A stretch of 64,000 nucleotides of DNA from positions 1 through 64,000 of the IMG/VR virus record IMGVR_UViG_3300037112_000094, one strand, 5' to 3'. The notes below the pieces were generated by a model. That model was not told the DNA's origin. It saw only the letters and a list, made by a program, of their open reading frames with translations, and ran no database searches. Source of the stretch: an uncultured virus (IMG/VR IMGVR_UViG_3300037112_000094). Lineage: Duplodnaviria; Heunggongvirae; Uroviricota; Caudoviricetes. Shown here piece after piece: positions 1,165 to 19,186 of this stretch (the first letter of the stretch is position 1; every line of letters starts with the position of its first letter). The translations under genes and the position numbers were made by a program.

Positions 1165-1238
1165 TGGTGTACCTGCACGGATTTGAACCGCGATGACACG
1201 CTAATCGGGCGTGCGTCCTACCGTTGGACGACAGGTAC
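1165..1238 (-). tRNA. tRNA-Ile(GAT), atypical loop CC-GAT-TA
   Basis: cloverleaf; CACGC/GCGTG anticodon stem; TTCAAAT T-loop; encoded CCA. Confidence 0.8.
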
Positions 1239-1242
1239 AAAA

Positions 1243-1317
1243 TGGAGGCCAGAGTCGGAACTGCCCCGACAATTCTTGCTTACCGAGCAAGAGGTTTTCT
1301 CGTTAACCTATCCGGCC
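1243..1317 (-). tRNA. tRNA-Thr(GGT), non-canonical T-loop
   Basis: CTTGC-TCGGTAA-GCAAG; T-loop GGCAGTT; CCA. Confidence 0.8.
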
Positions 1318-1324
1318 CAAAATT

Positions 1325-1398
1325 TGGTGGGGGATGAAGGAGTCGAGCCCTCGTAGCCTGCTTGTAAGACAGGTGTTCTTCCGTTGAACTAATCCCCC
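1325..1398 (-). tRNA. tRNA-Val(TAC)
   Basis: CCTGT-CTTACAA-GCAGG; CCA. Confidence 0.9.
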
Positions 1399-1399
1399 A

Positions 1400-1474
1400 T
1401 GGTGCAAGCGCGCAGATTTGAACTGCGAATTGAGGTTCCGGAGACCTCTGTGATTTCCGTTTCACCACGCCTGC
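1400..1474 (-). tRNA. tRNA-Arg(CCG)
   Basis: GAGGT-CTCCGGA-ACCTC; CCA. Confidence 0.9.
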
Positions 1475-1481
1475 AAAACTT

Positions 1482-1557
1482 TGGTCAACCCGCTGGAACT
1501 CGAATCCAGAACTGAAACTTAGGAGGTTTCCGTGATCTCCATTTTCACCACGAGTTG
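1482..1557 (-). tRNA. tRNA-Arg(CCT)
   Basis: GAAAC-CTCCTAA-GTTTC; CCA. Confidence 0.9.
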
Positions 1558-1558
1558 A

Positions 1559-1633
1559 TGGAGAGCCCACTGAGAGTTCAACTCAGATTCTCGGTTTAGA
1601 AGACCGGCGTCTTATGCGTTAGACGATAGGCTC
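1559..1633 (-). tRNA. tRNA-Arg(TCT)
   Basis: CCGGT-CTTCTAA-ACCGA; CCA. Confidence 0.85.
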
Positions 1634-1634
1634 A

Positions 1635-1709
1635 TGGTGGGATGCCGGGGTAACCATCCCCGTTCTTCCGGTTAAAAGCCGGTTGCTTCAGCATTAAAGC
1701 TTGCATCCC
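1635..1709 (-). tRNA. tRNA-Lys(TTT), non-canonical T-loop
   Basis: CCGG-CTTTTAA-CCGG; T-loop ATGGTTA; CCA. Confidence 0.8.
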
Positions 1710-1715
1710 GTAACT

Positions 1716-1792
1716 TGGTCCCGACGAGAGGCCACGATCCTCCAACCTTCCGGTTAAGAGCCGGTTGCTCTGCCCATTTGAGCTACGTCGGG
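1716..1792 (-). tRNA. tRNA-Lys(CTT)
   Basis: CCGG-CTCTTAA-CCGG; T-loop ATCGTGG; CCA. Confidence 0.85.
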
Positions 1793-1793
1793 A

Positions 1794-1887
1794 TGGTAGG
1801 GGATCACGGAGTTGAACCGTGCCGTTGCGCTAATCTGGCGCTCTCCAGAGTTTATAAGGCTCCGCCGCACAGCCGATGCTATCCCCC
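1794..1887 (-). tRNA. tRNA with TAT anticodon (Ile, reads ATA); long variable arm, short D arm
   Basis: GGAGC-CTTATAA-ACTCT; variable arm GCGC-CAGATTA-GCGC; TTCAACT T-loop; CCA. Confidence 0.75.
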
Positions 1888-1896
1888 AACAACACT

Positions 1897-1970
1897 TGGT
1901 GCCGCGCGAGGGAAGCGAACCCTTACTCCGAACGCCTTATGAGAGCGTCGTCCCATCTCGGGTACGCGGC
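1897..1970 (-). tRNA. tRNA with CAT anticodon (Met or Ile2); reduced D arm
   Basis: ACGCT-CTCATAA-GGCGT; D arm CCC-GAGAT-GGG; CCA. Confidence 0.75.
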
Positions 1971-1975
1971 AAATA

Positions 1976-2051
1976 TGGCGGGGGCGGCAGGACTCGAACC
2001 TGCGAGTTCGGGTTTGGAATCCGACAGTTTAGCCGCTAAGCTTACGCCCCC
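1976..2051 (-). tRNA. tRNA-Trp(CCA)
   Basis: TCGGA-TTCCAAA-CCCGA; GCCA end. Confidence 0.9.
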
Positions 2052-2060
2052 GTATTGTCA

Positions 2061-2092
2061 AACAACAAAAACCCCCGGCCTGAGCCGAGGGT
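2061..2092 (-). terminator. attenuator terminator upstream of tRNA operon 1
   Basis: ACCCTCGGC-TCAG-GCCGGGGGT then TTTTGTTGTTT, just before tRNA-Trp. Confidence 0.85.
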
Positions 2093-2117
2093 CTGTGGAC
2101 TCGAATCTGATTGCAGA

Positions 2118-2207
2118 TTAGTCGTCCCAACCCTCGCGCACAACTCCCCAAATGACCCGCTTGGTCCCGGTCATGGAGGTTCTCACGGATTTGGACCTTA
2201 TCTGCAC
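2118..2207 (-). CDS. leader peptide 1, MQIRSKSVRTSMTGTKRVIWGVVREGWDD
   Basis: GTG 7 nt after the -10 box; has a codon for all 11 downstream tRNAs; 3' end overlaps the antiterminator arm. Confidence 0.85.
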   Translation of the reverse strand: MQIRSKSVRTSMTGTKRVIWGVVREGWDD

Positions 2208-2214
2208 GAAATTC

Positions 2215-2243
2215 AGCCTACACCTGTTTCGGATTCTTTGCAA
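2215..2243 (-). promoter_or_regulatory. sigma70-type promoter of tRNA operon 1
   Basis: TTGCAA-N17-TAGGCT. Confidence 0.75.
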
Positions 2244-2347: not shown

Positions 2348-2767
2348 CTACGCGGATTCTGGAGTGTTCTGTTGCTCTATGTATTGCTTGATGATACCTA
2401 ACGGTGCTCCTCCGCATGATGCAGCAAAGTAGCTTGGAGACCAGAGGACGCCTTTCCAATAGCGCTTCTGGATATCGGGACGTTCGAGTCTGAGCAGGCG
2501 ACTGGAGACGCCTTTGAGACTGTTGACCATAGCAGATACAGAGTGCTTTGGTGGGTAGTTGACCAAAAGATGAACGTGATCTTGCTCCCCGTCCATCTCG
2601 ACTAGATCGGCTTCAAAGTCTGTGGCAACGTTCTTGAATATAGTTCGCAAACTGTCAATGGCACTTTTGTCAAAGACTTTGCGCCTGTACTTGGTCACAA
2701 AGACCAAATGAACATGAATCTGGAAAACACAGTGTCTGCCGTGTCGGATTTCGCTTGCATCACTCAT
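2348..2767 (-). CDS. tnpA: Y1 HUH transposase TnpA
   Basis: HLVFVTKYRR, DHVHLL (HUH), LWSPSYFAAS, YIEQQ. Confidence 0.95.
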   Translation of the reverse strand: MSDASEIRHGRHCVFQIHVHLVFVTKYRRKVFDKSAIDSLRTIFKNVATDFEADLVEMDGEQDHVHLLVNYPPKHSVSAMVNSLKGVSSRLLRLERPDIQKRYWKGVLWSPSYFAASCGGAPLGIIKQYIEQQNTPESA

Positions 2768-2792
2768 AGACCAAGTGTATAGTGGAGACATC

Positions 2793-3917
2793 ATGTCAGT
2801 CAAGACTCACAAATATCGGCTAGTTCCCAACAAGGCACAGCGTGTGGCGCTGGACCAGACCTTGTTTCTGTGCCGATCTTTATACAACGATGCCCTGCAA
2901 GAGCGCATCGGGGCCTATAAACTCCACCAACGTGTTGGCAGATTCGATCAGGATAAGCAGTTGCCTGCAATCAAGGAAGCCGTCCCCGAGTACAAAACAG
3001 TCCATTCCCAGGTGCTACAGAACGTTCTAAAGAAGCTCGACGTTGCCTATCAGAACTTCTTTCGTCGCTGCAAACTTGGCGGTGCTCCTGGATTCCCTCG
3101 GTTCAAAGGCAGGGATCGTTTCAACTCCTTCGCGTTCAATAATACGGGCTGGTCTCTCCAGGGAAATCAACTATCGCTCTCCAAGATCGGGAACGTCAAG
3201 GTGCGGTTGTCTCGTCCGCTCCCGAATGATGCTGTGCTCAAGCTGTGTACAATCAAACGCGAAGCAGATGGATGGTACGCGACGATCACATTTGAGTTCG
3301 AGCCCGTGCCGTTGCCGTCCACTGGATTGCCGGTAGGCATAGACGTAGGCATCGCGTCGTTCGCCACATTCTCTGATGGTACGGCGATTCCAAACCCTCG
3401 AATCTACCAGAACGCTCAAGCAGAACTCCGCAGAGCACAGCGGAAAGTTGCTCGGCGCAAGAAGGGATCTAATCGTAGGCGCAAGGCAGTTATCCTGCTA
3501 AAGAAAGTCCACCAACGTGTTGCCAACAAGCGCGCGAACTTCCTCCATAAACTATCGACAGCAGTGATTCAGAAGTACGATGCTATCGCGGTAGAAGATT
3601 TAAACGTCTCTGGCATGTCCAAGGGCAACCTTGCCAAACATGTTCTAGACGTGAGTTGGGCAGAATGGTTTAGGCAACTATCCTACAAGGCAGAATGGGC
3701 CGGTAGGATGTTCGTTGCCGTAGACCCAAAGTACACATCCCAGACCTGTGCCAAGTGCGATCATGTATCCAAAGACAACAGGAAGACTCAGGAGCTATTC
3801 CTCTGCGTCTCCTGTGGACACACGGACCACGCGGACAGGAACGGGGCAGTAAACATATTAGCTCGGGCAGAGCTATCAGACGCTAACGTAAGCGGAGTAA
3901 CGCTATGCGTAGTCTGA
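2793..3917 (+). CDS. tnpB: RNA-guided endonuclease TnpB
   Basis: GIDVG (RuvC-I), VEDL (RuvC-II), TSQTCAKC..CVSCG zinc finger, ADRNGAVNI (RuvC-III). Confidence 0.95.
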   Translation: MSVKTHKYRLVPNKAQRVALDQTLFLCRSLYNDALQERIGAYKLHQRVGRFDQDKQLPAIKEAVPEYKTVHSQVLQNVLKKLDVAYQNFFRRCKLGGAPGFPRFKGRDRFNSFAFNNTGWSLQGNQLSLSKIGNVKVRLSRPLPNDAVLKLCTIKREADGWYATITFEFEPVPLPSTGLPVGIDVGIASFATFSDGTAIPNPRIYQNAQAELRRAQRKVARRKKGSNRRRKAVILLKKVHQRVANKRANFLHKLSTAVIQKYDAIAVEDLNVSGMSKGNLAKHVLDVSWAEWFRQLSYKAEWAGRMFVAVDPKYTSQTCAKCDHVSKDNRKTQELFLCVSCGHTDHADRNGAVNILARAELSDANVSGVTLCVV

Positions 3918-5541: not shown

Positions 5542-5841
5542 TTACGCGCCGACAGGCTCGCCAAGTGCGGCCAGTTCCTTGTCGATGGAATCGCGCTTCT
5601 CCTGCGCAGTCTTGAGACTGTCGCGCTGCGACTTCAACTCACGGATACGCGTTGCACGGCGGTCGGCCATGCGCGAGTCGATCTCGCGAGCGAGGGTGTT
5701 CAGGTTGTCCGAAACGTACTCGGGTACCGCAACCTTCTGGGCCTCGAACTCACCGCGAAGCTGCTTGCCAAACGCCGACAACGCAACAAGCTCGTCGATG
5801 GATGCAGCGTCCACATTGAAGTTCTTGAATTCCTGAAGCAT
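5542..5841 (-). CDS. small coiled-coil protein
   Basis: AGGAGG SD before MLQEFK; alternative start 5919. Confidence 0.7.
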   Translation of the reverse strand: MLQEFKNFNVDAASIDELVALSAFGKQLRGEFEAQKVAVPEYVSDNLNTLAREIDSRMADRRATRIRELKSQRDSLKTAQEKRDSIDKELAALGEPVGA

Positions 5842-5918
5842 AGGCTTCCTCCTTTCCGTCTTCTCCATACCGGGGTTGACAAAGATGTTCTTCCTCTTCA
5901 TTGGAATCTTCTTCGGCA

Positions 5919-7427
5919 TTACGCACCAACCAGTTCACCGATCTTGAGCACGTCGCTGAGCGACAAGAGCGGAGTTGTCAGAATCTCGTCCACCAAACTA
6001 TAGCGATTCGAACGCATTGACTGAACGAGGTTCGGCAGGGAATAGTAATCGATCTGGCTTCCACGAAGGTCAAACATCTGCGACTCGATCCCTGCGTTGT
6101 TCAGGTAGCCGCTGAACGTGTTGTTGTCGCCGCTCGTGCTGTAGAAGTAGACCGGCACTTCCTTGCCCACGAACTCCGAATACTTCTTGTAGACGTTGTG
6201 GAAGAACGGAGCCGTGTTCTCGCCGCCGTCTGAAACAACGGCGATGCCGTCGACCTCGATCTTCTCCTCCAGCATCCGGTTCAAACCGCATCCGATGGAA
6301 GTGCCTCCGTCTGCGCGAATGTGCCGCGTTGCCTTCTGGATTTGATCGAGCGAAAGCCCGGTCACGTCCACCGTCATCGGGACAACGTCGAAGAACACCA
6401 GCCACACCTTGCCCTTGACGAACTGAGCAAGCTGTGCCGAAACCTGCCGTGCGACCTCGATGGCCACCCTCATGCTTCCGCTCTTGTCGGCAAGCACAAG
6501 CCAGTTGCCCTCCGGTCCGCCAGCCGCAGCGATCTGCTGCTTCTGGAGCCCACGGAGCTTCTCCTTCAGCCCCTCGTCCTCGACGGCGTCGACGGCCTGA
6601 GTCGTCTTCAGCGTGTTCTTCTTCGACTTCGCAGCCTTCTCCATCGCCTTCTCGAACGCACCGCGAAGCGCTGGGTTGTTCTTCATGCCCAGCTTCTCCA
6701 GCATCTTCACGTTCGTCGTCAACTCGGTCGGCGACATGCGTTCGATCAGAGCAAGAACAAGATCAGTGTCCTTGGCCTTCTCCCCGAGCGCGCCCATGGC
6801 GATAAGGAACGGAATCCTGAACCTCAAGATCGCGCCAGCCGCCTCAACAGGAGACATGCTCTTCAGGTTGGCCACGGCCTCAAAGATCGATCCCTTTGGC
6901 AACGCCAGCTTGGTCACGACCATCGAGCCGTTGATGCTCTCCTTCCACTGGCCGGAGATCACAGCCGCGACGTGGCGGTTGCCCGGACCGGTGCGAGAAA
7001 GAGCGTAGAGCGCCTTGAGCACCTTGCGGTGCTGGATGGCAAGGTGATCCCAGCCCTTCTCCCCTTCCTTCTGGCGGAGGTAGGCGCGGATCATCCGATC
7101 CATCCGCGACATCTTTCCCTTCGGGCGCATCTCGCGCACGAAGTCGAACGCCTTGCGCATCTCACGCGGGCCGAGCAGCGCGAGGTGCGCGATGCTGTTG
7201 TCGAGAAGCTCAAAATCGCTTTCGTATGCCAGACCAAGAACCGGCAGCGCGATCTTCGCATCGCGAACCTGTGAATTCTTAAACGTCCATGCCACGAGAT
7301 GCTGATAGAACTCGCCTTCCTGCTCGATGGCTTGCTTGCCGATGGGGATGTAGTCGCTCAGCTTCCCGTGAGGGCTGCGTGCCAATTCGGCATAAATTCT
7401 TTGCTTCGTTAAACCAGATTCTGTCAT
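5919..7427 (-). CDS. Ro60/TROVE-like RNA-binding protein with C-terminal vWA domain
   Basis: helical N-terminal region; MIDAS DKSGS...GGTS...VSDGGEN; lies downstream of Y-RNA-like modules. Confidence 0.65.
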   Translation of the reverse strand: MTESGLTKQRIYAELARSPHGKLSDYIPIGKQAIEQEGEFYQHLVAWTFKNSQVRDAKIALPVLGLAYESDFELLDNSIAHLALLGPREMRKAFDFVREMRPKGKMSRMDRMIRAYLRQKEGEKGWDHLAIQHRKVLKALYALSRTGPGNRHVAAVISGQWKESINGSMVVTKLALPKGSIFEAVANLKSMSPVEAAGAILRFRIPFLIAMGALGEKAKDTDLVLALIERMSPTELTTNVKMLEKLGMKNNPALRGAFEKAMEKAAKSKKNTLKTTQAVDAVEDEGLKEKLRGLQKQQIAAAGGPEGNWLVLADKSGSMRVAIEVARQVSAQLAQFVKGKVWLVFFDVVPMTVDVTGLSLDQIQKATRHIRADGGTSIGCGLNRMLEEKIEVDGIAVVSDGGENTAPFFHNVYKKYSEFVGKEVPVYFYSTSGDNNTFSGYLNNAGIESQMFDLRGSQIDYYSLPNLVQSMRSNRYSLVDEILTTPLLSLSDVLKIGELVGA

Positions 7428-8574: not shown

Positions 8575-8709
8575 GGGTTGTAGTCGATATGGTTTAGATT
8601 TTGCGGAGCCTTGCGGCTCGCGCCCCCCATATTGATGAAGCCGAATAAGGTGGTGGAGGGGGCCGGAGTTTCCCCCGGAACAAAGTCATGTATCCACTTC
8701 AGTCAACCC
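8575..8709 (-). ncRNA. Y-RNA-like module 7 (T arm, closed acceptor, D-like hairpin)
   Basis: GGGTTGACTG..GGATACATG ... CGACTACAACCC closing stem; internal CCCCCTCCACCA and GGGGGGC. Confidence 0.65.
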
Positions 8710-8714
8710 AAACT

Positions 8715-8824
8715 TGGCTGGGGGACTCGGTTACGAGCCGAGATTGGCTTGCGCCAAAAAGACATGTATCCGAATCAGTCAGCAGTATCGCTGTAGTCGT
8801 TCCGGAACCTCTTAGGTCCCCCAG
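8715..8824 (-). ncRNA. Y-RNA-like module 6 (tRNA-like ends, conserved stem inserted internally)
   Basis: CTGGGGGA/TCCCCCAG-CCA; internal CGACTACAGC-loop-GCTGACTG..TACATG. Confidence 0.65.
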
Positions 8825-8834
8825 TAAAACTTGA

Positions 8835-8961: not shown

Positions 8962-8970
8962 ACAACTTAT

Positions 8971-9093: not shown

Positions 9094-9105
9094 AATTCAA
9101 AATCA

Positions 9106-9244: not shown

Positions 9245-9250
9245 ACTTTA

Positions 9251-11229: not shown

Positions 11230-11952
11230 TTAGTTAACAAACTGGTATCTTGTGTCACCCGTGTTAAGCAAAGCACAAGTCGCAAGTCTCTTGGCTATGG
11301 ACTCCGGAGTTTTCCTCTTTCCACGCATACTCGCGGAAATCTTCGCCTTGTGCTCATCCGACATCGGCCTGCGTTTCCGGTAGCCGACTTTTACCCCCTT
11401 GTGCGACGCTGACATCTTCGCTCTCGATTCCTCTGCAACAGGGTGTCCTTTCAAGGTGGCCGAGATTCTGGCCCTCAACTCTGGCGAGCGCGTTACCGGT
11501 CCTCTATTTCTAGCAGCCTCGGCCATTCTCGCTCTTCCTTCTTCCGATACTTTGTGCCCCTTGGCATAAGAGTTTCCCTTATGGACATCTGAAAGTGTCG
11601 AGCTTCCCTTTTCTGTAAGAATCCTGATTCCGTCTCTGTTGAATCCGCTGTACCCTCCTGCCGTCCTGTTATAGCCGCGACCGCTTGTGATGTAGGTTTT
11701 GTAGAATTTGATGAAGTGCTTTTCGAGATCGTCGAGCAAAAGTGGATCACACGAGGCGACTTCGATAACTGTGAAGTTTTCAACTCCCCACTTTCTCATC
11801 GCCCTATGTATGGGCAGATTGCTTCCGCGCTTGACCTCGTATTTGTGCTGGTTGAACCTTATCCACACAGTTTGTTTCGTGGTCTGGCCGACGTACCCCT
11901 TGCCGTTCGCGAGATTACGAATTAAGTAAATTTTGCCGACGAGTTTGCGCAT
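11230..11952 (-). CDS. GIY-YIG homing endonuclease with NUMOD3-like repeats
   Basis: KIYLIRN..NGKGYVGQT...GYN; repeated SEExRAxMS. Confidence 0.9.
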   Translation of the reverse strand: MRKLVGKIYLIRNLANGKGYVGQTTKQTVWIRFNQHKYEVKRGSNLPIHRAMRKWGVENFTVIEVASCDPLLLDDLEKHFIKFYKTYITSGRGYNRTAGGYSGFNRDGIRILTEKGSSTLSDVHKGNSYAKGHKVSEEGRARMAEAARNRGPVTRSPELRARISATLKGHPVAEESRAKMSASHKGVKVGYRKRRPMSDEHKAKISASMRGKRKTPESIAKRLATCALLNTGDTRYQFVN

Positions 11953-11955
11953 CTT

Positions 11956-12501
11956 TTACCTAAATTGTAACCTCGTTTCGCCTTCGGAATCAGAAAAAAG
12001 GAACTTTCCCCATTCCTCAACTTCTCTGCCAAGCTGTTTCAAAATGAAGCGGCTTGTAAAGATATTCGCGGGCAGCGGCCTATGGATCAACTTCATTCCA
12101 GCCTCTTCCGGCGTCCGGTTGTTCTTACGTCTATTGCACGGGGAACAGGCAGCAACAAGGTTGTCCCATGACTGCTTACCACCTCTGCTTCTCGGGATCA
12201 CGTGCTCCAGTTCAAGCTCTGCCCCGTTGTTCTTCTTCGCGCCGCAGTACATGCACCTGAAACCGTCGCGAATGAAAATGTTCTTCCTCGAAACCTGCTG
12301 CATCCGGTGCGGGACGTTCCTGTAGTGCCGCAAACGGATGACGGAAGGAAGGTAGATTCCCTTGTGGACTTGGATGCTGGTTGGCACCTCCACCACGGCA
12401 ACGCCCTTGGTTATGAGCGTGAGCGCCTTTCGCGCGCTGACGATTCTCAGCGGCTCATACGACGCGTTAAGTTGTAGTACCGCTCTCCGTATGAGTGCCA
12501 T
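11956..12501 (-). CDS. HNH endonuclease (McrA-like)
   Basis: VLQLNASYEPL...RDGFRCMYCG...EHVIPRSRGG..WDNLVAACSPCNRRK. Confidence 0.9.
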   Translation of the reverse strand: MALIRRAVLQLNASYEPLRIVSARKALTLITKGVAVVEVPTSIQVHKGIYLPSVIRLRHYRNVPHRMQQVSRKNIFIRDGFRCMYCGAKKNNGAELELEHVIPRSRGGKQSWDNLVAACSPCNRRKNNRTPEEAGMKLIHRPLPANIFTSRFILKQLGREVEEWGKFLFSDSEGETRLQFR

Positions 12502-12516
12502 GGAATCCCCTTTCTT

Positions 12517-12672
12517 CTACCTCTCGTCAATCTGTGGAGCACCGTCCCGGAATCGAACCGGGGCTTCGACGTTACGAGGGTCGTGTTGTGCCGACTCAAC
12601 TAACGGTGCTCGAAATCCTTTCGCCAACCGTGCGAAAACATGCTGCATGTCGGCGTTCAAATCGATCTTCAT
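12517..12672 (-). CDS. small ORF reading through tRNA-Thr(CGT)
   Basis: GGAGG SD then MKIDLNADMQH...; no stop before the tRNA. Confidence 0.4.
   Translation of the reverse strand: MKIDLNADMQHVFARLAKGFRAPLVESAQHDPRNVEAPVRFRDGAPQIDER
12535..12609 (-). tRNA. tRNA-Thr(CGT)
   Basis: CGACC-CTCGTAA-CGTCG; CCA. Confidence 0.85.
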
Positions 12673-12688
12673 TCTTCTTCCTCCAAAG

Positions 12689-12762
12689 TGGAGCGGGGTA
12701 TCGGGTTCGAACCGATGCGCAAAGTGTGGCACACTTCGATGCTACCGCTACATCAACCCCGC
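12689..12762 (-). tRNA. tRNA-Gly(GCC)
   Basis: GAAGT-GTGCCAC-ACTTT; GCG acceptor, U73. Confidence 0.85.
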
Positions 12763-12763
12763 G

Positions 12764-12837
12764 TGGCACCCGGTGGGAGAATCGAACTCCCGTGTTGGGT
12801 TCCAAAGGCCCACGTCCTGCCACTGAACGAACCGGGA
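12764..12837 (-). tRNA. tRNA-Gln(TTG)
   Basis: TGGGC-CTTTGGA-ACCCA; GCCA end. Confidence 0.85.
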
Positions 12838-12849
12838 ACAACTCAAACT

Positions 12850-12925
12850 TGGCTGGCTCTCCGGGACTCGAACCCAGATCATTCGCTCCAGAGGCGAAGG
12901 TCCTCAACCATTGAACGAAGAGCCA
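12850..12925 (-). tRNA. tRNA-Gln(CTG)
   Basis: TTCGC-CTCTGGA-GCGAA; U1-A72. Confidence 0.9.
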
Positions 12926-12935
12926 ACTTCTAAAC

Positions 12936-13010
12936 TGGCTCAAGGGGTGGGAGTCGGACCCACAACGACACGGTTAACAGCCGTGGGCTCTACCATTGAG
13001 CTACCCTTGA
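12936..13010 (-). tRNA. tRNA-Asn(GTT)
   Basis: CACGG-CTGTTAA-CCGTG; U1-A72, G73. Confidence 0.9.
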
Positions 13011-13020
13011 ACATCCCCAC

Positions 13021-13059
13021 AAACGAGAACCCCCAGTTCCTTTCGGTTCTGGGGGTCTC
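13021..13059 (-). terminator. attenuator terminator upstream of tRNA operon 2
   Basis: GAGACCCCCAGAACC-GAAA-GGAACTGGGGGTTCTC-GTTT; U-tract is weak. Confidence 0.75.
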
Positions 13060-13101
13060 AAGTTTTTCCATCTGTGTTAGGAAAAAATCTGTCTGAGACC
13101 C

Positions 13102-13173
13102 CTAGTCCGCACCGCCGCTATTACCGGCTGGTTGCGTCGGCTGTGTCGCTGCGTTATGGAATCGGGTTCTCAC
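13102..13173 (-). CDS. leader peptide 2, MRTRFHNAATQPTQPAGNSGGAD
   Basis: GTG 7 nt after the -10 box; has a codon for all 12 downstream tRNAs. Confidence 0.88.
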   Translation of the reverse strand: MRTRFHNAATQPTQPAGNSGGAD

Positions 13174-13180
13174 GTTTTCC

Positions 13181-13209
13181 ACGATATAATCAATCAGGAA
13201 AACTGTCAA
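13181..13209 (-). promoter_or_regulatory. promoter of tRNA operon 2
   Basis: TTGACA-N17-TATCGT. Confidence 0.8.
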
Positions 13210-13225
13210 GAGGTTTTTGAAAAAA

Positions 13226-13930
13226 ATGGCCCGCGTTCACCTACTCGTCAAAGCAGCGGTTGAGCGTGGAAGCATTACAATCGCGCTCTTATGCGAAGAA
13301 TGTGGGGCACAGCGACGGCTTGTCGCCCACCACGACGATTATGCAAGACCACTAGATGTGCGTTGGCTTTGCTTATTTTGTCACAGCAAGTGGCACGTTG
13401 ATAATGGGCCGGGATTAAACAGAGAGTTGGCAGGATTCTACGATCTTGGGGCCTCCATACCACCCAAACCTGCCGATCCGCGCAGAGAGGAAATGAAAGT
13501 CCTCCGTAGGGATGGTTGGACACTGCAAAAAATTGGGAATAAATACGGTTTTACAAGAGAATATGTGCGCCAGATTGTCGGTTCATCTTCCGCTCGTCAA
13601 TCTAATTCAGAGAAGATTCGAGCCAACATCCTTGAAATAGAATCGCTGCGAAATGACGGGAAAACGGTGAGGCAAATAGCCGGATTGCTTGGCTTCTCTT
13701 GTGATGCTCTCTCGCGGGCATCCTTGCCTCCACGAGTAAAACCAAAGCCAATACATGGTGTCACCACGACCTATACCTATCACAGATGTAGATGCGATCT
13801 CTGTCGCGAAGCTAACGCCAAACGAACAAGCGAGCGAACTCGCGCCATTCGGATGAAAGGGCTGTGTGTCGCCTGCAAAAGCCCATCAACCACATGGCAT
13901 TGCGATGAATGTAATCTAAAGTACCTTTAA
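13226..13930 (+). CDS. zinc-binding / HTH DNA-binding protein with HNH-like N-terminus
   Basis: CEECG..HHDDY..PLDVRWLC..CH; TLQKIGNKYGFTREYVRQI; CRCDLC. Confidence 0.65.
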   Translation: MARVHLLVKAAVERGSITIALLCEECGAQRRLVAHHDDYARPLDVRWLCLFCHSKWHVDNGPGLNRELAGFYDLGASIPPKPADPRREEMKVLRRDGWTLQKIGNKYGFTREYVRQIVGSSSARQSNSEKIRANILEIESLRNDGKTVRQIAGLLGFSCDALSRASLPPRVKPKPIHGVTTTYTYHRCRCDLCREANAKRTSERTRAIRMKGLCVACKSPSTTWHCDECNLKYL

Positions 13931-13946
13931 TCACTTCATCGGTTTA

Positions 13947-14180
13947 TCACTTTTTTGGGATGCGCTTGCGGGCCACGGCCTTCTGCTCGCCGGGGCGCGG
14001 CGGCTGTTGCTTGCCGTAGTAGTACCACGAGGTCGCGAGGGGGGGCTTGCCCCTGCTGGTTTTCATGGTGGAGGATTTTCCGGGAACCGGAAGCTTATTG
14101 ATGAAATCCTCAGCGCCCTGCAACTTGTCAGACCAGCCCTTGACAAGGTCGATGATCGGCTGAAAGGCGGTACTTGCCAT
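13947..14180 (-). CDS. small hypothetical protein, leaderless
   Basis: TTGACT-N17-TACCGT-N6-ATG. Confidence 0.55.
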   Translation of the reverse strand: MASTAFQPIIDLVKGWSDKLQGAEDFINKLPVPGKSSTMKTSRGKPPLATSWYYYGKQQPPRPGEQKAVARKRIPKK

Positions 14181-14276
14181 ACCAGAACGGTAGCGCCTCG
14201 CGGGCCGGTAGTCAATAAATTCTTCATCTGCGGTGTCCTTCTTGACAAATACGCAAATCCGCGTATTCTCGAATTT

Positions 14277-14597
14277 ATGCACACGGTGACGAACATCGAT
14301 GGCCTCCTCGAAATCATGAAGACGCTTCAGGGCGAGAAAAGCCAGAAGGACTTTGCCCAGACATTGGGCGTGTCGCCGTCCTACCTCAATGACGTTTACA
14401 ATCGCCGCCGTGAACCGGGCAGGAGTATCACTGAATCTCTCGGGGTCAGCGCGACTATGACGTACACGGTCCCAGAAAACATTTCAACCACAGCCGCGAC
14501 GATCTCGCGAGGAGAAATCCATGGCCAAGTCCACAAAGAAAACCAAAAAAGAATCAAAGCCAAAGGGCAAAGAAAATCGCGGAAGCGTTCTGATTAA
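14277..14597 (+). CDS. XRE-family HTH regulator, leaderless
   Basis: SQKDFAQTLGVSPSYLNDVYNRRREPG; TTGACA-N16-TATTCT-N7-ATG. Confidence 0.8.
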   Translation: MHTVTNIDGLLEIMKTLQGEKSQKDFAQTLGVSPSYLNDVYNRRREPGRSITESLGVSATMTYTVPENISTTAATISRGEIHGQVHKENQKRIKAKGQRKSRKRSD

Positions 14598-14832
14598 CTT
14601 TGTTCTCGACAAATCTGGCTCAATGGGAAGTTGTGTCGACGACACCATCGGCGGCTTCAACACCTACATCAAGAAGCTCCGGGAAGACAAAAAGTCCACC
14701 TACAAGTTCAGCCTGACGTTGTTCGACACGCGGTTCGAAGAACGGTTCGTCTCGGTTGACCTTAAAGACGTTCCCGACCTCAACACAAAGAACTACGTTC
14801 CGGGCGGCGGAGGATTCACACCTCCTGCATAG
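14521..14832 (+). pseudogene. vWA-domain protein, C-terminally truncated
   Basis: FVLDKSGSM...TIGGFN...LTLFD...YVPGGG then stop; later MIDAS residues missing. Confidence 0.65.
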
Positions 14833-15268
14833 TCGAGCTATCCGCCCGTTGGTACGCGCCCAAGGATTCGAACCTCGGACCTCCGTCAGACTGCAACGGC
14901 GCTCTGACCACTGAGCTAGGCGCGTATGTCAAATTGTTTTCGTTCCAAAGCTTGTAGTTCTGGAGCACCGCGCGCTGATCCTCGTCGAGAGGAATCGTCG
15001 CGACCGCAGTGAGTCCCAGATCGTCATCGCTCTCGTGGAACTCCGAGAACTCGATGCGATTCAGCTTGAGCTTCTGGATTACCTTGTGAAGCGCTTTTTT
15101 GTCGGGAACGCCTATGAGCACGATGGAAGGCGTAGAAGGATCGGCGCTCTGGGTGAGCGTGTAAGCCATATCAAATGTCGCGTGGTTCGTCTGCACGATC
15201 TGTGCAGCGATGGGGAGGTCTTGCCGAACGAAGAGGTAAAAGTACGTCTTGGAATCGATCTACGTCAT
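14816..15268 (-). CDS. Pth2-like peptidyl-tRNA hydrolase with in-frame TAG at codon 3
   Basis: ATG ACG TAG then YLFVRQDL..AQIVQTNHA...TAVAT.PL...YKLW in the same frame. Confidence 0.65.
14850..14925 (-). tRNA. tRNA-like gene with aberrant anticodon loop GCAGTCT; identity undetermined
   Basis: clean acceptor, D and T arms and ACCA; loop lacks Y32, U33 and R37. Confidence 0.7.
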
Positions 15269-15275
15269 ATTCAGC

Positions 15276-15304
15276 ATAGTGAAGGAAAGCGCAGAATTTG
15301 TCAA
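15276..15304 (-). promoter_or_regulatory. promoter of the Pth2-like gene
   Basis: TTGACA-N17-CACTAT-N7-ATG. Confidence 0.65.
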
Positions 15305-15310
15305 GAGGTT

Positions 15311-15868
15311 TTACAGATTATTTTTTCCCTTTCGATATCTGCCGAACCCATCCCAGTCTCCAAAAGCCCCAGATTCTCGGATTTTTCTCACCTGTGGAAC
15401 CAGCATCATCCATGCCGCATAGGGCATATCTCTCCGGAGATAATTACAGCGCCCACAGCACGCTACGACGTTATTCTGAGAGTGGCCCAACGCATTGTCG
15501 ATGCGATCTAAGCCGACGCGTATTCTTATCTCCCCACAATAAGAGCAACCATCTTTTATGGATTCTTTCACGAACTCAATCGTGAGGTCACAAACAAATC
15601 CTTTTTTCTTATCTGATCGCCGACAGTCAACGACTATCACACGCGGTATCTGCTCTCGATCTGTTCTTTCGCGCCTTTGGCGAATCATCGCTGACAACCT
15701 TATCGTTTCTGTTCTTCCACGCGACCGCCGCCAAATTTGTTTACGTTTAGTATCACAGCTTCGACAAATATATTTCGGATACTGTCTCCCGCCTACGAGG
15801 CGCAGCGCAAATGTGACCTCTGGCTCAGACTTACCACATTTGTTGCAAATTGAGGAGTCACCGTTCAT
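15311..15868 (-). CDS. HNH-like endonuclease
   Basis: CSYCG...GLDRIDNALGHSQNNVVACCGRCN. Confidence 0.8.
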   Translation of the reverse strand: MNGDSSICNKCGKSEPEVTFALRLVGGRQYPKYICRSCDTKRKQIWRRSRGRTETIRLSAMIRQRRERTDREQIPRVIVVDCRRSDKKKGFVCDLTIEFVKESIKDGCSYCGEIRIRVGLDRIDNALGHSQNNVVACCGRCNYLRRDMPYAAWMMLVPQVRKIRESGAFGDWDGFGRYRKGKNNL

Positions 15869-15871
15869 ATA

Positions 15872-15951
15872 TGGTGGGGCAGACGGGATTCGAACCCGCG
15901 AACTCCTGAGTGAAAGTCAGGTGAAAGATTCCAGACACCTTCTACTACCCC
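15872..15951 (-). tRNA. tRNA-Glu(TTC)
   Basis: CCTGA-CTTTCAC-TCAGG; CCA. Confidence 0.85.
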
Positions 15952-15957
15952 ACAGCT

Positions 15958-16035
15958 TGGCGTCCCGTAGCGGATTTGAACCGCCGTTTTGACCTTGAGA
16001 GGGTCACGTCCTTGGCCAGACTAGACGAACAGGAC
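15958..16035 (-). tRNA. tRNA-Glu(CTC)
   Basis: TGACC-CTCTCAA-GGTCA; GCCA end. Confidence 0.9.
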
Positions 16036-16039
16036 AAGA

Positions 16040-16114
16040 TGGCGCGAGCGACGGGAGTTGAACCCGCTTGAACTGCATAGACAGTGCAGTACCTGACCGT
16101 TAGGATACGCCCGC
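16040..16114 (-). tRNA. tRNA-Asp(GTC)
   Basis: CTGCA-CTGTCTA-TGCAG; G73. Confidence 0.85.
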
Positions 16115-16120
16115 AAAAAA

Positions 16121-16197
16121 TGGTTGCGAGGGAGGGATTCGAACCCTCGATCTCCAGCTTATGAGGCTGGCGAGATAGACCGCTTCTCCACCACGCG
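16121..16197 (-). tRNA. tRNA-Met(CAT), initiator-like
   Basis: C1xA72 mismatch; CCAGC-CTCATAA-GCTGG, without the usual GGG/CCC anticodon-stem run. Confidence 0.8.
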
Positions 16198-16203
16198 CTA
16201 TTT

Positions 16204-16232
16204 ACAGTACCACGGAACCTGCGCGCGTGCAA
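16204..16232 (-). promoter_or_regulatory. promoter of tRNA operon 4, no leader
   Basis: TTGCAC-N17-TACTGT directly before the initiator-like tRNA. Confidence 0.65.
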
Positions 16233-16235
16233 GAA

Positions 16236-16721
16236 TTACTCTGACGGGCACTGTGGCAGGGTAGCCAGATCATCTGTCAATCGAGTGTGGACCCCGTACA
16301 TACTCAGATCGATGTGCGACGTCGGCCAGTCATTGAGAATCCGATTCAAAGCACCAACCCATGCCGCATCTTCCGTGTCATAGTAGTGCTTATTTTCACT
16401 CACAACAAGGGCGTGCTTATGTTGTGGGTTGCATGGTTCCCCGAGAATCACATGACCGACGTTGTTGAGCATGATCGCATGTGCAAGTGGGAAATCATCT
16501 CTGACCCGGCTGGCCGCAGACATGCCCTTGCGCTGGCGAACTAACTGCTGATCGCAAACGTGTGGGAACCACTCTGTGTTTGGGTAGATCGGACCTTCTG
16601 GGTTGGTGAACGCGTTTCCGCCCCACTCTGTTCCCATCTTGACGATGAAAACGCCGCAATTTTCGCATGTGTGGGGGCCATAGTAAACGATCTTCGAGTT
16701 ACGGAAGCTGATGGGGTTCAT
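16236..16721 (-). CDS. hypothetical protein
   Basis: AGGAG SD before MNPISF; CENC motif. Confidence 0.6.
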   Translation of the reverse strand: MNPISFRNSKIVYYGPHTCENCGVFIVKMGTEWGGNAFTNPEGPIYPNTEWFPHVCDQQLVRQRKGMSAASRVRDDFPLAHAIMLNNVGHVILGEPCNPQHKHALVVSENKHYYDTEDAAWVGALNRILNDWPTSHIDLSMYGVHTRLTDDLATLPQCPSE

Positions 16722-16781
16722 TGATTTTCTCCTGCGTAAGTATTTCCGTGTTGCCACGGAATGACAGGAGTGTAGCATAAA

Positions 16782-17165
16782 TCAAATTAGCTTTCTAAAT
16801 GCATCTGCGGCATAGAGGCGGTCGATCTCCTTCTTGAACCCATCTCCGTGACTGTGATCGTTGAAGTTCGCAATTCGATAAAGGTGCGCCATTTCATGCA
16901 GGAGGGTAATATGCGCAACACAGTAGATGAACGCCAATGGTGGAGAGACAACTATCTTGTAGCCTCTTCGAAGAGTATCAAGTTGGCCACACGGATGGTT
17001 CTGCCACACAGTTGTGTCACGTATGTGCCGGAAAACTGTTTTCACGTTCTCTGGAATCCAAAGGCCACGCTTTATCCAGTATTTCTTCCTCATTCTCACG
17101 AAGTTATTCTGGAGATCGTCATCGTCCATCGGGGACCACGTCGTCTGAAACCGATACGTTCGCAT
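16782..17165 (-). CDS. SprT-like zinc metalloprotease
   Basis: TLLHEMAH...HSHGDGF; TATACT-N7-ATG. Confidence 0.75.
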   Translation of the reverse strand: MRTYRFQTTWSPMDDDDLQNNFVRMRKKYWIKRGLWIPENVKTVFRHIRDTTVWQNHPCGQLDTLRRGYKIVVSPPLAFIYCVAHITLLHEMAHLYRIANFNDHSHGDGFKKEIDRLYAADAFRKLI

Positions 17166-17190
17166 GTGCCAGAGTATAGCGCAGAAATTC

Positions 17191-17281
17191 TGGTGCGTTG
17201 GGCAGGATTTGAACCTGCAGCGTCATCGAAGATGATCCAGATTTACAGTCTGGTAGAGTCCACCGTCTCTCCAGCCAACGC
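17191..17281 (-). tRNA. tRNA-Tyr(GTA)
   Basis: CCAGA-CTGTAAA-TCTGG; long variable arm. Confidence 0.9.
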
Positions 17282-17385
17282 ACGTGGTAAACTTCCGTTC
17301 AGGACGGCCTCATGATGCCGCCAAAGGGGGAGTCTGGTACTGCTTCACCGTTGTTGCACGACCTGTCAATCTCCCCCTTACAAAC

Positions 17386-17475
17386 TGGCGGATGGTGAGG
17401 GATTCGAACCCCCGAGACCCTTCGGTCTACTGGTACTCAAGGCCAGCGCGATCAACCAGACTCTGCCAACCATCC
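17386..17475 (-). tRNA. tRNA-Ser(TGA)
   Basis: CTGGC-CTTGAGT-ACCAG; long variable arm; G73. Confidence 0.85.
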
Positions 17476-17481
17476 AAAACT

Positions 17482-17569
17482 TGGCGGAAGCGGAGCGAGT
17501 CGAACGCTCAACACCCGAAGGTGTGTCCCGCTTCGAACGGGGTGGGCCTGCCAAATGCCCAACGCTTCC
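17482..17569 (-). tRNA. tRNA-Ser(CGA)
   Basis: CCCCG-TTCGAAG-CGGGA; long variable arm. Confidence 0.85.
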
Positions 17570-17574
17570 AAAAC

Positions 17575-17661
17575 TGGCGGAAGGGACAGGAGTCGAACCT
17601 GCACACGCTTTCACGTGACCCGGTTTCCAGCCGGGGGCGATACCGTTCCGCTCACCCTTCC
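17575..17661 (-). tRNA. tRNA-Ser(GGA)
   Basis: CCCGG-CTGGAAA-CCGGG; long variable arm. Confidence 0.9.
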
Positions 17662-17670
17662 GTAAAAATA

Positions 17671-17756
17671 TGGCGGAGCGCCAGTGAATCGAACACTGTC
17701 AACCTCGCGGTTGTGCGGCTTAGCAAGCCGTTGCATTACCATCCTGCCCGCGCTCC
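17671..17756 (-). tRNA. tRNA-Ser(GCT)
   Basis: CGGC-TTGCTAA-GCCG; long variable arm. Confidence 0.9.
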
Positions 17757-17764
17757 GTAAAACT

Positions 17765-17842
17765 TGGTGCGGATGATCGGCCTCGAACCGATAAGCCTGA
17801 AGGTTTGAGCTTCAGAGGTATTCCGTTTCCCTTCACATCCGC
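17765..17842 (-). tRNA. tRNA-Leu(CAA), short variable loop
   Basis: TGAAG-CTCAAAC-CTTCA; A73. Confidence 0.8.
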
Positions 17843-17847
17843 AAACT

Positions 17848-17933
17848 TGGTGCGCGTGGCGAGACTCGAACTCGCAATGGGTGTTACCCCTCCGGTGCCT
17901 AAAACCGGCGCTTTTCCGTTTTGCTACACGCGC
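17848..17933 (-). tRNA. tRNA-Leu(TAG)
   Basis: CCGGT-TTTAGGC-ACCGG; long variable arm. Confidence 0.9.
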
Positions 17934-18664
17934 ACATCCTTATTGCCACGACTCCTGCCGAAAACCTTGGGCATCTCCATGCCATATCGCCGAATCCACT
18001 TCCTAACAGCGTTGTCAGAGACTCCGAATTTTTCACCAATCTTTATCATCGGCAACGTTTGCAATAAGGATTGCAATTCTACAGGGCTCGGTCGGTCCAC
18101 TTTTCTCAAACGCGGCTTGTCCCTTGTTCTCCAGTAACCGTCCGAAGACGGGTGCCTGACCTCTCTCCCTTGCCTCTTTGGCCTGAGCTTAGGTGGGAGG
18201 AATTGCTTCGAATCCTTTCTGCGAGAAAATGTAAGAGTTTGGGAATGACAATTGGGGCAAATAAACTCTAGGTTTTCCTCTACATCGTTTTGGAAGTTTC
18301 CATCCTTGTGTTCTATCTCAAGAATCAGTTTCTTTCCACGCCACTCGCGAAGCCCACAAACATAACACTTATATGGCCGTCCAATGTCGAGCAGCGAACG
18401 CACAAGCACCTTTGCTCTCTGCCTTTTCAGGTCTGCATGGTAAACCAAATATGAATCGGCTTCCCTTCGATTCAAACTGGGCTTTCCTAAATGCCAACGC
18501 TTTCCGATGAAGTGGCTTGTGCTGATCCCATATTCCTTAATCCTCTTCGAAACATGGTGAGATGTTCCACCAGCCAGATTTGGTGCTCCGCATTTTCTCA
18601 ATACGTCTGCCATTGAAAAACTTTCTTTCACGGCCTGTTCGAGAATTTCCTTTGTGTACTTCAT
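17924..18664 (-). CDS. HNH endonuclease with HTH; stop lies inside tRNA-Leu(TAG)
   Basis: CYVCG...LEIEHKDGN..N...NLEFICPNCHSQT; TATAAT 9 nt before ATG. Confidence 0.85.
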   Translation of the reverse strand: MKYTKEILEQAVKESFSMADVLRKCGAPNLAGGTSHHVSKRIKEYGISTSHFIGKRWHLGKPSLNRREADSYLVYHADLKRQRAKVLVRSLLDIGRPYKCYVCGLREWRGKKLILEIEHKDGNFQNDVEENLEFICPNCHSQTLTFSRRKDSKQFLPPKLRPKRQGREVRHPSSDGYWRTRDKPRLRKVDRPSPVELQSLLQTLPMIKIGEKFGVSDNAVRKWIRRYGMEMPKVFGRSRGNKDVRV

Positions 18665-18698
18665 GATGGTTCAATTATACCATCATGGTTCAAATCTT

Positions 18699-18778
18699 TG
18701 GTGGGCAGAGTGGAATTCGAATCCACAAAATCACAGCCGTCTGAAGACTGCCGCTTTGCCAAATTTGCGTACCTGCCC
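18699..18778 (-). tRNA. tRNA-Leu(CAG), short variable loop
   Basis: CAGTC-TTCAGAC-GGCTG; A73. Confidence 0.8.
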
Positions 18779-18779
18779 G

Positions 18780-18856
18780 TGGTGCGCGAGGGGGAAATCG
18801 AATCCCCAAACACCAGACCCTCGATCTGGCGGCTTTGCCTGTTTGCCTACTCGCGC
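18780..18856 (-). tRNA. tRNA-Leu(GAG), short variable loop
   Basis: CCAGA-TCGAGGG-TCTGG; A73. Confidence 0.8.
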
Positions 18857-18864
18857 GTGAAACT

Positions 18865-18940
18865 TGGAGGACCGGGCCGGATTTTAACCAGCGATTAGCA
18901 AGGTTGCAGCTTGCCGCGTTTAACACTTCGCCACCGATCC
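18865..18940 (-). tRNA. tRNA-Cys(GCA)
   Basis: GCAAG-CTGCAAC-CTTGC; U73. Confidence 0.9.
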
Positions 18941-18941
18941 A

Positions 18942-19018
18942 TGGTGCCCGCAGGGGTACTCGAAACCCCATCCCGACCTTTTTAAGAAGTCGCGCTCTGC
19001 CATTTGGCGTACACGGGC
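18942..19018 (-). tRNA. tRNA-Leu(TAA), short variable loop
   Basis: GACTT-CTTAAAA-AGGTC; A73. Confidence 0.8.
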
Positions 19019-19020
19019 AC

Positions 19021-19050
19021 AAACTAAAAAGCCCCCGATTTCTCGGAGGC
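19021..19050 (-). terminator. attenuator terminator upstream of tRNA operon 3
   Basis: GCCTCCGA-GAAA-TCGGGGGC-TTTTTAGTTT. Confidence 0.85.
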
Positions 19051-19079
19051 CGCTGACTGAATTCCACTTTGGACTCAGT

Positions 19080-19148
19080 TCACGAACCCCCGCCACCGCT
19101 CAGTAATGAGCTATACGAGGAGAGCGAACTGAGGCACACTGTCTTCAT
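19080..19148 (-). CDS. leader peptide 3, MKTVCLSSLSSYSSLLSGGGGS
   Basis: 13 consecutive Cys/Leu/Ser/Tyr codons upstream of a Cys/Leu/Ser/Tyr tRNA operon. Confidence 0.88.
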   Translation of the reverse strand: MKTVCLSSLSSYSSLLSGGGGS

Positions 19149-19157
19149 AGCGAAACC

Positions 19158-19186
19158 ATCATTCCATGGAATTGGTGGGTTGTCAA
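19158..19186 (-). promoter_or_regulatory. promoter of tRNA operon 3
   Basis: TTGACA-N17-AATGAT, 9 nt before ATG. Confidence 0.65.

Follow-up and report, generated by a model that had tools for sequence, protein, structure and literature searches.

Enterobacterial leader-peptide attenuators, which can be multivalent, include thrL (Thr, Ile), the ilvGMEDA leader (Ile, Leu, Val), trpL, hisL, leuL and pheL, as well as pheM, which lies ahead of pheST. The T-box, which has a conserved fold and binds one uncharged transfer RNA (tRNA) directly and without a ribosome, also monitors the tRNA pool and sets a terminator against an antiterminator ahead of translation-related genes, and the tRNA genes themselves are a textbook example of control at the level of the promoter, by growth rate and the stringent response. 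In this study, a 64,000-nucleotide (nt) stretch of DNA from an uncultured peat phage of the Caudoviricetes (positions 1-64000 of the 71,219-base virus record IMGVR_UViG_3300037112_000094, hereafter the window) was found to carry three leader units, L1, L2 and L3, each of which heads one block of tRNA genes. Analysis of their sequences and modelled folds indicated, with a probability of about 0.75, that the three units are transcription attenuators of the ribosome-mediated, leader-peptide type, which would sense decoding by many tRNAs and in turn regulate the genes that encode them.

In the enterobacterial leaders a short open reading frame (ORF) follows the promoter, the regulatory codons lie upstream of the zone in which antiterminator or terminator is decided, and the speed of decoding by charged tRNAs is sensed, a plan that L1-L3 would share. 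The enterobacterial leaders control biosynthetic or synthetase genes and use runs of codons for one to three amino acids, whereas L1-L3 precede the tRNA genes themselves and contain nine to twelve sensed codon species, each used one to three times; the start of L1-L3 also appears leaderless, unlike that of the enterobacterial leaders. L1-L3 would resemble the T-box in watching the tRNA pool and differ from it in having an in-frame ORF and in giving no T-box match at the Rfam gathering score. The Rfam searches covered positions 1-22000 of the window, in which the His, Trp, Thr, Leu and Phe leader families likewise gave no match at the gathering score and no family except tRNA reached it; neither the curated amino-acid leaders nor T-boxes are therefore homologous to L1-L3. 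In mycobacteria, according to two reports, leaderless short ORFs encoding polycysteine are Cys-responsive attenuators that unmask a ribosome-binding site and thus act on translation (10.1101/834739), and ribosomes stall on them when VapC4 cuts tRNA-Cys (PMC13096801). Like the mycobacterial ORFs, L1-L3 have a short ORF that comes first and would remodel the downstream RNA when ribosomes pause; the promoter geometry of L1-L3 fits a leaderless start, and the mycobacterial ORFs are known to respond when a toxin depletes a tRNA. The mycobacterial ORFs differ in that they read one amino acid and serve cysteine metabolism genes, whereas L1-L3 would read many tRNAs and have termination ahead of tRNA genes as their output. 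A full-text literature search, mostly without subscription journals, found no paper on leader-peptide control of tRNA genes, and the original prediction (a note made from the DNA sequence alone) likewise knew of no described attenuator sensing many isoacceptors to control tRNA genes. L1-L3 probably place tRNA genes under a control logic that the literature searched does not describe for them.

The three units are located on the minus strand (2243-2070, 13209-13029 and 19186-19030) and share one plan, in which a promoter is followed by a start codon 7-9 nt past the -10 element, an ORF of 22-29 codons, an alternative helix and a terminator. The original prediction had described this layout in the same three places, and all of its parts were located there. 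A consensus scanner independently recovered both the promoter and the terminator of L3, as well as the L2 promoter and the L1 terminator. The leader features and the tRNA blocks are as follows, all on the minus strand.

2215-2243, minus strand: promoter-like site of L1 (-35 at 2243-2238, 17-nt spacer, -10 at 2220-2215, 7 nt to the start codon)
2118-2207, minus strand: leader ORF L1 (GTG start at 2207, 29 codons and a stop; peptide VQIRSKSVRTSMTGTKRVIWGVVREGWDD)
2082-2142, minus strand: L1 antiterminator helix from ribosome-mask folding (5' strand within codons 22-28; 3' strand taking in the terminator 5' arm)
2070-2093, minus strand: L1 intrinsic terminator (10-11 pairs and a U run, -18.6 kcal/mol; 11 pairs, 7 of them GC, by the scanner)
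13181-13209, minus strand: L2 promoter (TTGACA, 17 nt, TATCGT; 10/12 by the scanner; 7 nt to the start codon)
13102-13173, minus strand: leader ORF L2 (GTG start at 13173, 23 codons and a stop; peptide VRTRFHNAATQPTQPAGNSGGAD)
13049-13105, minus strand: L2 antiterminator (5' strand beginning at the stop codon; 3' strand overlapping the terminator 5' arm)
13029-13056, minus strand: L2 terminator hairpin (-17.6 kcal/mol; tail UCUCGUUUGU, a weak U tract)
19158-19186, minus strand: L3 promoter (TTGACA, 17 nt, AATGAT preceded by TG; 10/12 by the scanner; 9 nt to the ATG)
19080-19148, minus strand: leader ORF L3 (ATG start at 19148, 22 codons and a stop; peptide MKTVCLSSLSSYSSLLSGGGGS)
19044-19092, minus strand: L3 antiterminator (5' strand formed by the Gly-codon tail of the ORF; 3' strand formed by the terminator 5' arm)
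19030-19051, minus strand: L3 intrinsic terminator (-15.6 kcal/mol; 9 pairs and a U run by the scanner)
1165-2051, minus strand: tRNA block O1, headed by L1, with 11 tRNAs (Trp, Met, Ile-UAU, Lys-CUU, Lys-UUU, Arg-UCU, Arg-CCU, Arg-CCG, Val-UAC, Thr-GGU, Ile-GAU)
9515-13010, minus strand: tRNA block O2, headed by L2, with 12 tRNAs (Asn, Gln-CUG, Gln-UUG, Gly-GCC, Thr-CGU, three homing-endonuclease ORFs at 12501-10460, Thr-UGU, His, Ala-UGC, an ORF of 82 amino acids, putative Phe-GAA, Pro-CGG, Pro-UGG, Arg-ACG)
17191-19018, minus strand: tRNA block O3, headed by L3, with 11 tRNAs (Leu-UAA, Cys, Leu-GAG, Leu-CAG, an HNH ORF at 18664-17924, Leu-UAG, Leu-CAA, Ser-GCU, Ser-GGA, Ser-CGA, Ser-UGA, Tyr)
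14850-16197, minus strand: comparison block O4, leaderless, with a promoter that abuts tRNA-Met, followed by Asp, Glu-CUC, Glu-UUC, an endonuclease ORF and Thr-AGU

The interval of 7-9 nt between the -10 element and the start codon suggests that the messenger RNAs of L1-L3 are leaderless or nearly so, starting at or at most 2 nt from the start codon; in L027, a related contig described below, this leader is about 20 nt long. Hexamers of the -10 type that end 7-9 nt before a start codon or a tRNA 5' end were also seen at 16782-17165, at 17924-18664 and at the leaderless tRNA-Met block (16121-16197, minus strand), a spacing that suggests wide use of leaderless transcripts by the phage and its host.

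Each leader lists codons read by the tRNAs of its own block. When G34 was allowed to read C and U, U34 to read A and G, C34 to read G, and A34 (as inosine) to read U, C and A, the own-block tRNAs covered were 11/11 for L1, 12/12 for L2 and 10/11 for L3. The lists given in the original prediction were thus confirmed for the first two operons, while for the third, in which TTG and CTA are absent as had been stated, standard wobble raised the predicted 9/11 to 10/11. The leader codons that match the own block numbered 15 of 28 in L1, 17 of 22 in L2 and 14 of 21 in L3, with unbroken runs of matched codons at codons 4-15 of L2 (twelve) and 5-17 of L3 (thirteen). Against the other two leader-headed blocks just 1-4 codons matched per leader, bearing out the earlier observation that the leaders differ in composition as the clusters do. 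The match also depended on the reading frame, with 15 matched codons in the true frame of L1 versus 3 and 3 in its other two frames, 17 versus 11 and 6 in L2, and 14 versus 4 and 4 in L3.

For each leader, 300,000 ORFs of equal length were simulated by drawing on the phage's own codon usage. The observed coverage was reached by 115 (L1), 241 (L2) and 445 (L3) of the 300,000 simulated ORFs, and the observed number of matched codons by 55, 16 and 2, respectively. These tails changed little when the two least certain tRNAs, Ile-UAU and Phe-GAA, were left out, the coverage then being reached by 123, 503 and 456 ORFs and the number of matched codons by 116, 26 and 3. As an empirical control, each of the three blocks was set against 1384 short ORFs from six frames, and ten rows of the resulting 4152 comparisons showed full coverage; four of the ten were the L1 and L2 frames and six lay at four unrelated places. 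Since full coverage was also found at unrelated short ORFs, each leader taken alone is significant at about 1e-3. Taken together, the three leaders show a codon match far beyond chance, with a joint probability of about 1e-9 before correction. Furthermore, a finder blind to promoters, applied to 49 short ORFs upstream of the contig's tRNAs, returned the three leader frames as its top eight rows; the same scan of short ORFs upstream of tRNAs found no leader-like ORF ahead of O4. L1 also covers all five tRNAs of O4 (5/5), which was taken as chance, as the codons responsible are not kept in the related virus G001 described below. To look for a match at the level of codons rather than of amino acids, the Arg and Thr codons, which O1 and O2 divide between them, were counted; L1 had 6 codons of its own block against 1 of the other and L2 had 3 against 2, too few for a conclusion.

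The tRNA genes of the window are confined to the minus strand, from 19018 to 1165. ARAGORN at default settings reported 35 tRNAs in the window, every one on that strand, and missed four of the 34 operon tRNAs named in the original prediction. Thr-GGU and Lys-UUU were recovered with a lowered ARAGORN threshold, the former also by Rfam, and Ile-UAU required a still lower threshold, its homologue in a relative passing at the default setting. A second Lys-CUU was added to the default 35 by lowered thresholds, Rfam and the relative. The putative Phe-GAA (9846-9771, minus strand), which has an unusual non-canonical T loop, was recognized by eye and by a cloverleaf minimum-energy fold, and was missed by both ARAGORN and Rfam; its cloverleaf overlaps the 3' end of the 82-amino-acid ORF, and it was the TTC codon of leader L2 that pointed to it.

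Equilibrium folds of the full leaders favoured the terminator every time. Because such folds reveal little of a switch that works kinetically, the nascent transcript was folded instead, taken up to the terminator loop and with 29 nt kept single-stranded to represent a ribosome positioned at each codon. Under this ribosome mask, a long helix pairs the end of the ORF or the stop-codon region with the terminator 5' arm in all three leaders. In the model, the L1 antiterminator persists for A-site positions from codon 1 to about codon 20/21 and is gone from codon 22 to the stop, that of L2 persists at codons 1-19 and is gone at codons 21-24, and that of L3 persists at codons 2-15 and is gone from codon 17. 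The matched codons are located upstream of the zone in which the ribosome melts the antiterminator, and the tail codons (the Gly run of L3 and GAG GGT TGG of L1) have no match in the block because they form the antiterminator 5' strand. Four leaders from relatives showed the same modelled behaviour.

In a shuffle control on eight leaders, the segment from the sensing codons to the terminator arm was subjected to 150 dinucleotide shuffles per leader. The energy lost with the ribosome at the stop was reached in 13, 0, 0, 1, 0, 0 and 0 of 150 shuffles for seven of the leaders, and the change in terminator-arm pairing in 1, 14, 7, 8, 25, 32 and 10 of 150. The switch of L1 was matched by 1/150 shuffles, and the energy differences of L2 and L3 by 0/150 each. 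By energy difference, 7 of the 8 leaders thus did better than their shuffles. Judged by these models, the structural case for a switch is good.

The mechanism that these results suggest would begin with transcription that starts at, or within 2 nt of, the leader start codon, so that a ribosome would read the ORF of 22-29 codons while RNA polymerase approaches the terminator. If all codons were decoded fast, the ribosome would reach the last codons or the stop and cover the antiterminator 5' strand, in which case the terminator would form and the tRNA genes would be left untranscribed. If decoding were slow at any of the 9-12 codon species that the operon's tRNAs read, the ribosome would wait upstream, the antiterminator would capture the terminator 5' arm and the whole tRNA block would be transcribed. 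The newly made tRNAs would then relieve the stall, closing a negative feedback loop. The sequence-level marks of ribosome-mediated attenuators were all found at L1-L3, namely an ORF between promoter and genes, codon enrichment, a terminator and, by modelling, an antiterminator that depends on ribosome position; from these we infer translation of the ORFs, the site of transcription start, kinetic coupling between ribosome and RNA polymerase, and a response to the supply of charged tRNA.

Relatives were reached via a protein of 180 amino acids encoded inside the tRNA array. The 105-kb virus record G001 encodes a copy of this protein that is 60% identical and carries a homologue of L1 that is 76% identical over 217 nt and keeps the geometry of the L1 promoter. 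Its O1-type block has the same 11 species in the same order as O1, plus Gly-UCC, and an HNH homing-endonuclease gene is inserted between the L1 terminator and the first tRNA (L008, about 18815-19140). A homologue of L3 in G001 heads a Leu/Cys/Ser/Tyr block, which is contiguous and without the HNH ORF, while no L2 and no Asn-to-Ala block were found in that record. L3-type leaders were found on the metagenome contigs L013 and L014, and an L2-type leader on L027, where it precedes tRNA-Asn, after which the contig ends. In the window, the tRNAs matched by the leaders reach up to 3.5 kb downstream, past inserted homing-endonuclease genes; since the match extends beyond the inserts and the O3-type block of G001 is contiguous, the leaders describe the ancestral operon as a whole.

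The five homologous leaders in these four contigs (two in G001 and one each in L013, L014 and L027) cover 10/11, 11/11, 11/11, 11/11 and 12/12 of the tRNA species of the corresponding window block, a coverage reached in 480, 5, 27, 2 and 626 of 100,000 simulations, respectively, and they show no enrichment for codons of the other blocks. Their peptides differ in order and length while the codon set is kept, which indicates that the peptide itself is not conserved. The terminator and antiterminator sequences also diverge among the relatives with the pairing kept, including compensatory changes in L1 of G001. This conservation of codon set and pairing gives the strongest support for selection on both the codon content and the switch.

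Further searches for relatives yielded little. Megablast of 12400-19300 against 50,697 phage records found no close cultured relative, and distant blastn of the same interval matched single tRNA genes only. A conserved 29-nt L1 pattern had no match in genome or metagenome contigs; a 22-nt pattern at the junction of L3 and its Leu tRNA was found among viral contigs only in the window's phage and G001; protein anchors at 19924-20697, 13217-13930 and 217-810 recovered the same phage only, plus one weak match; and an alignment search with the 180-amino-acid array protein found no relative in genome contigs.

Peat RNA and DNA libraries contain exact pieces of the window. One RNA contig of library X1 (2178-1796) and one of X2 (13131-12903) run, with no mismatch, from inside the L1 and L2 ORFs, respectively, through the terminators into the tRNAs, and in X1 and X3 the depth drops to 0 immediately before the L1 promoter. 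These contigs fit transcription from the leader promoters with some read-through.

Several observations weigh against the attenuator reading. The RNA data just described are assembled contigs, which carry no ends, strand or levels and may include DNA carry-over, so that they are no test of attenuation. The isoacceptor match is imperfect, as L3 is without TTG and CTA codons and L1 of G001 is without AGG in the presence of Arg-CCU, and CTC and CTG codons persist in L013 and L014, in which neither a Leu-GAG nor a Leu-CAG tRNA was detected; moreover, 13 of the 28 L1 codons are unmatched to the own block. The sensed codons are each present one to three times where classical attenuators use runs, and with so few copies per codon the sensitivity to loss of a single tRNA is uncertain. 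The scanner reported neither the L1 promoter, which is weak (8/12 consensus positions), nor the L2 terminator with its poor U tract. The L027 leader showed no modelled switch (-0.07, reached in 132/150 shuffles), and when the ORF end was simply tested for duplex formation with the terminator 5' arm, single leaders gave no significance, shuffles equalling the real duplex in 43, 343, 128, 66, 264, 112, 330 and 125 of 1000 trials for the eight leaders. Two unrelated tRNA-bearing phages speak against the device being general: the Atu_ph07 region, with six dispersed tRNAs, yielded 0 leader candidates, and the best of 118 candidates in the tRNA region of Phass-1, with 32 tRNAs, reached p = 1.2e-4 and covered 5/9 tRNAs, which is unconvincing. 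The codon-matched leader device is thus not universal among tRNA-bearing phages.

Some of these weaknesses would suit an alternative in which the ORFs and terminators are real but are not tuned by tRNA supply, the terminator serving as a constitutive partial stop that sets dosage, or translation protecting or timing the transcript, with the codon match as a by-product. The one to three copies of each sensed codon, the weak L2 terminator and L1 promoter, and the absence of a modelled switch in L027 are all consistent with it. A by-product leaves unexplained, however, the specificity for the own block and frame, the codon set kept in five scrambled homologous leaders, and the placement of matched codons upstream of the melting zone, and we consider this alternative unlikely. 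It is also conceivable that the leader is an RNA sensor independent of translation, which would bind tRNAs by codon-anticodon pairing in the manner of a T-box with many specifiers, as its triplets are complementary to the anticodons of the downstream tRNAs. Yet no T-box or other riboswitch family was found at threshold in 1-22000, the triplets lie in one frame from a start codon 7-9 nt past the -10 element to a stop codon adjoining the antiterminator, and adjacent tRNAs could not occupy twelve or thirteen neighbouring specifiers at once, an arrangement for which we know of no precedent; such a sensor is very improbable. A match that arose by chance, or as an artefact of composition through choosing ORFs after the tRNAs had been seen, would agree with the significance of single leaders at only about 1e-3 and with full coverage at four unrelated places among the 4152 comparisons. 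Chance would nevertheless have to place all three leaders (3/3) in the gap between promoter and terminator before their own blocks, at the joint probability given above, to repeat the pattern in five leaders of relatives whose scrambled order argues against recent copies, and to produce nothing comparable among the 118 candidates of the unrelated tRNA-rich phage, and it is almost certainly not the explanation.

The attenuator reading is therefore preferred; what the analysis established in its favour is the anatomy of the units, the statistics of their codons, the specificity for frame and block, a switch in the modelled folds, and a codon set conserved in scrambled order. As put forward in the original prediction, the attenuator architecture withstood the codon, frame, block, folding and conservation tests, while the match of codons to isoacceptors is not exact, as the gaps in L3 and in L1 of G001 illustrate. 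Within this reading, the attenuators could serve, as the original prediction proposed, as an inducible counter-defence, in which anticodon nucleases or other tRNA-depleting defences cut tRNAs, the leader stalls and replacement tRNAs are made. The circuit would answer whenever one of the 9-12 tRNA species of a block is lost, and toxin-driven tRNA loss is reported to stall ribosomes on leaderless attenuator ORFs in mycobacteria (PMC13096801). On the other hand, the window holds no link between the leaders and a defence system, and the same anatomy is explained by matching supply to the phage's own codon demand. Plain supply-and-demand feedback accounts for the data as well as counter-defence does, and we regard counter-defence as a doubtful special case of the attenuator reading.

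The window also encodes homing endonucleases, an IS200/IS605 element, tail-fibre-like proteins and polyvalent proteins. HNH/GIY-YIG homing-endonuclease genes lie inside the tRNA operons at 17924-18664, 10460-12501 and 15311-15868 and, if the attenuators work, would be co-regulated with the tRNAs. The IS200/IS605 element (2348-3917) is located just upstream of the L1 promoter and consists of TnpA (2803-2348, minus strand) and TnpB (2775-3917, plus strand); an X6 contig joins 2255 to 3989, which indicates that a variant without these 1733 bases exists.

Downstream of O2, at 8650-9480 (minus strand), tRNA-like pieces (T arm, acceptor, D arm, permuted) are spaced by a repeated motif of about 40-50 nt, and a similar array occurs at L008 13500-14100 (plus strand). 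The region includes a Lys-CUU tRNA (9076-9005), a sub-threshold match to YrlA, a Y-RNA-like family (9209-9128; 27.9 bits versus a cut-off of 69), and a depth among the highest in the RNA libraries (23-31 in X1). Near it lies the gene for a protein of 528 amino acids (7505-5919) that matches a PHROG annotated as RNA-binding protein; a sequence search against solved structures gave nothing meaningful for this protein. The array may be a phage Y-RNA-like module. Exact contigs at 5572-6333, which span the 3' end of the 528-amino-acid gene and its downstream region near a strong terminator (5513-5492), had the top depth of the pieces listed for two RNA runs (55 in X1 and 29.5 in X3). In G001, a permuted transfer-messenger RNA gene (L008 11393-11682; RF04321, 101 bits), for which ARAGORN reports a tag peptide, is located inside the tRNA array. 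Elsewhere in the window, 28683-32819 and 39802-41628 (minus strand) encode a 1378-amino-acid protein with an ART-PolyVal ADP-ribosyltransferase domain and a 608-amino-acid protein with radical-SAM and SPASM domains, respectively.

In conclusion, L1-L3 may be of practical use as an aid to annotation, as such leaders predict the tRNAs of one transcription unit and here pointed to four tRNAs that default ARAGORN missed. A broader proposal, that they represent a widespread undescribed class of decoding sensors in phages, plasmids and bacterial tRNA arrays, each reading about a dozen isoacceptors, including their destruction by anticodon nucleases, and serving as both counter-defence and tRNA homeostat, is tentative and, on balance, somewhat improbable. 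If the attenuator reading is true, control by a ribosome that tests the product tRNAs on a mini-gene written for the purpose would amount to a regulatory principle new to the translation apparatus, and compact natural sensors of decoding capacity for chosen codon sets could be of use in synthetic biology. It would also provide a testable link between phage tRNA arrays and the host defences that target tRNAs, and would account for the ability of large phages to refrain from producing 30-40 tRNAs as long as the host pool suffices.

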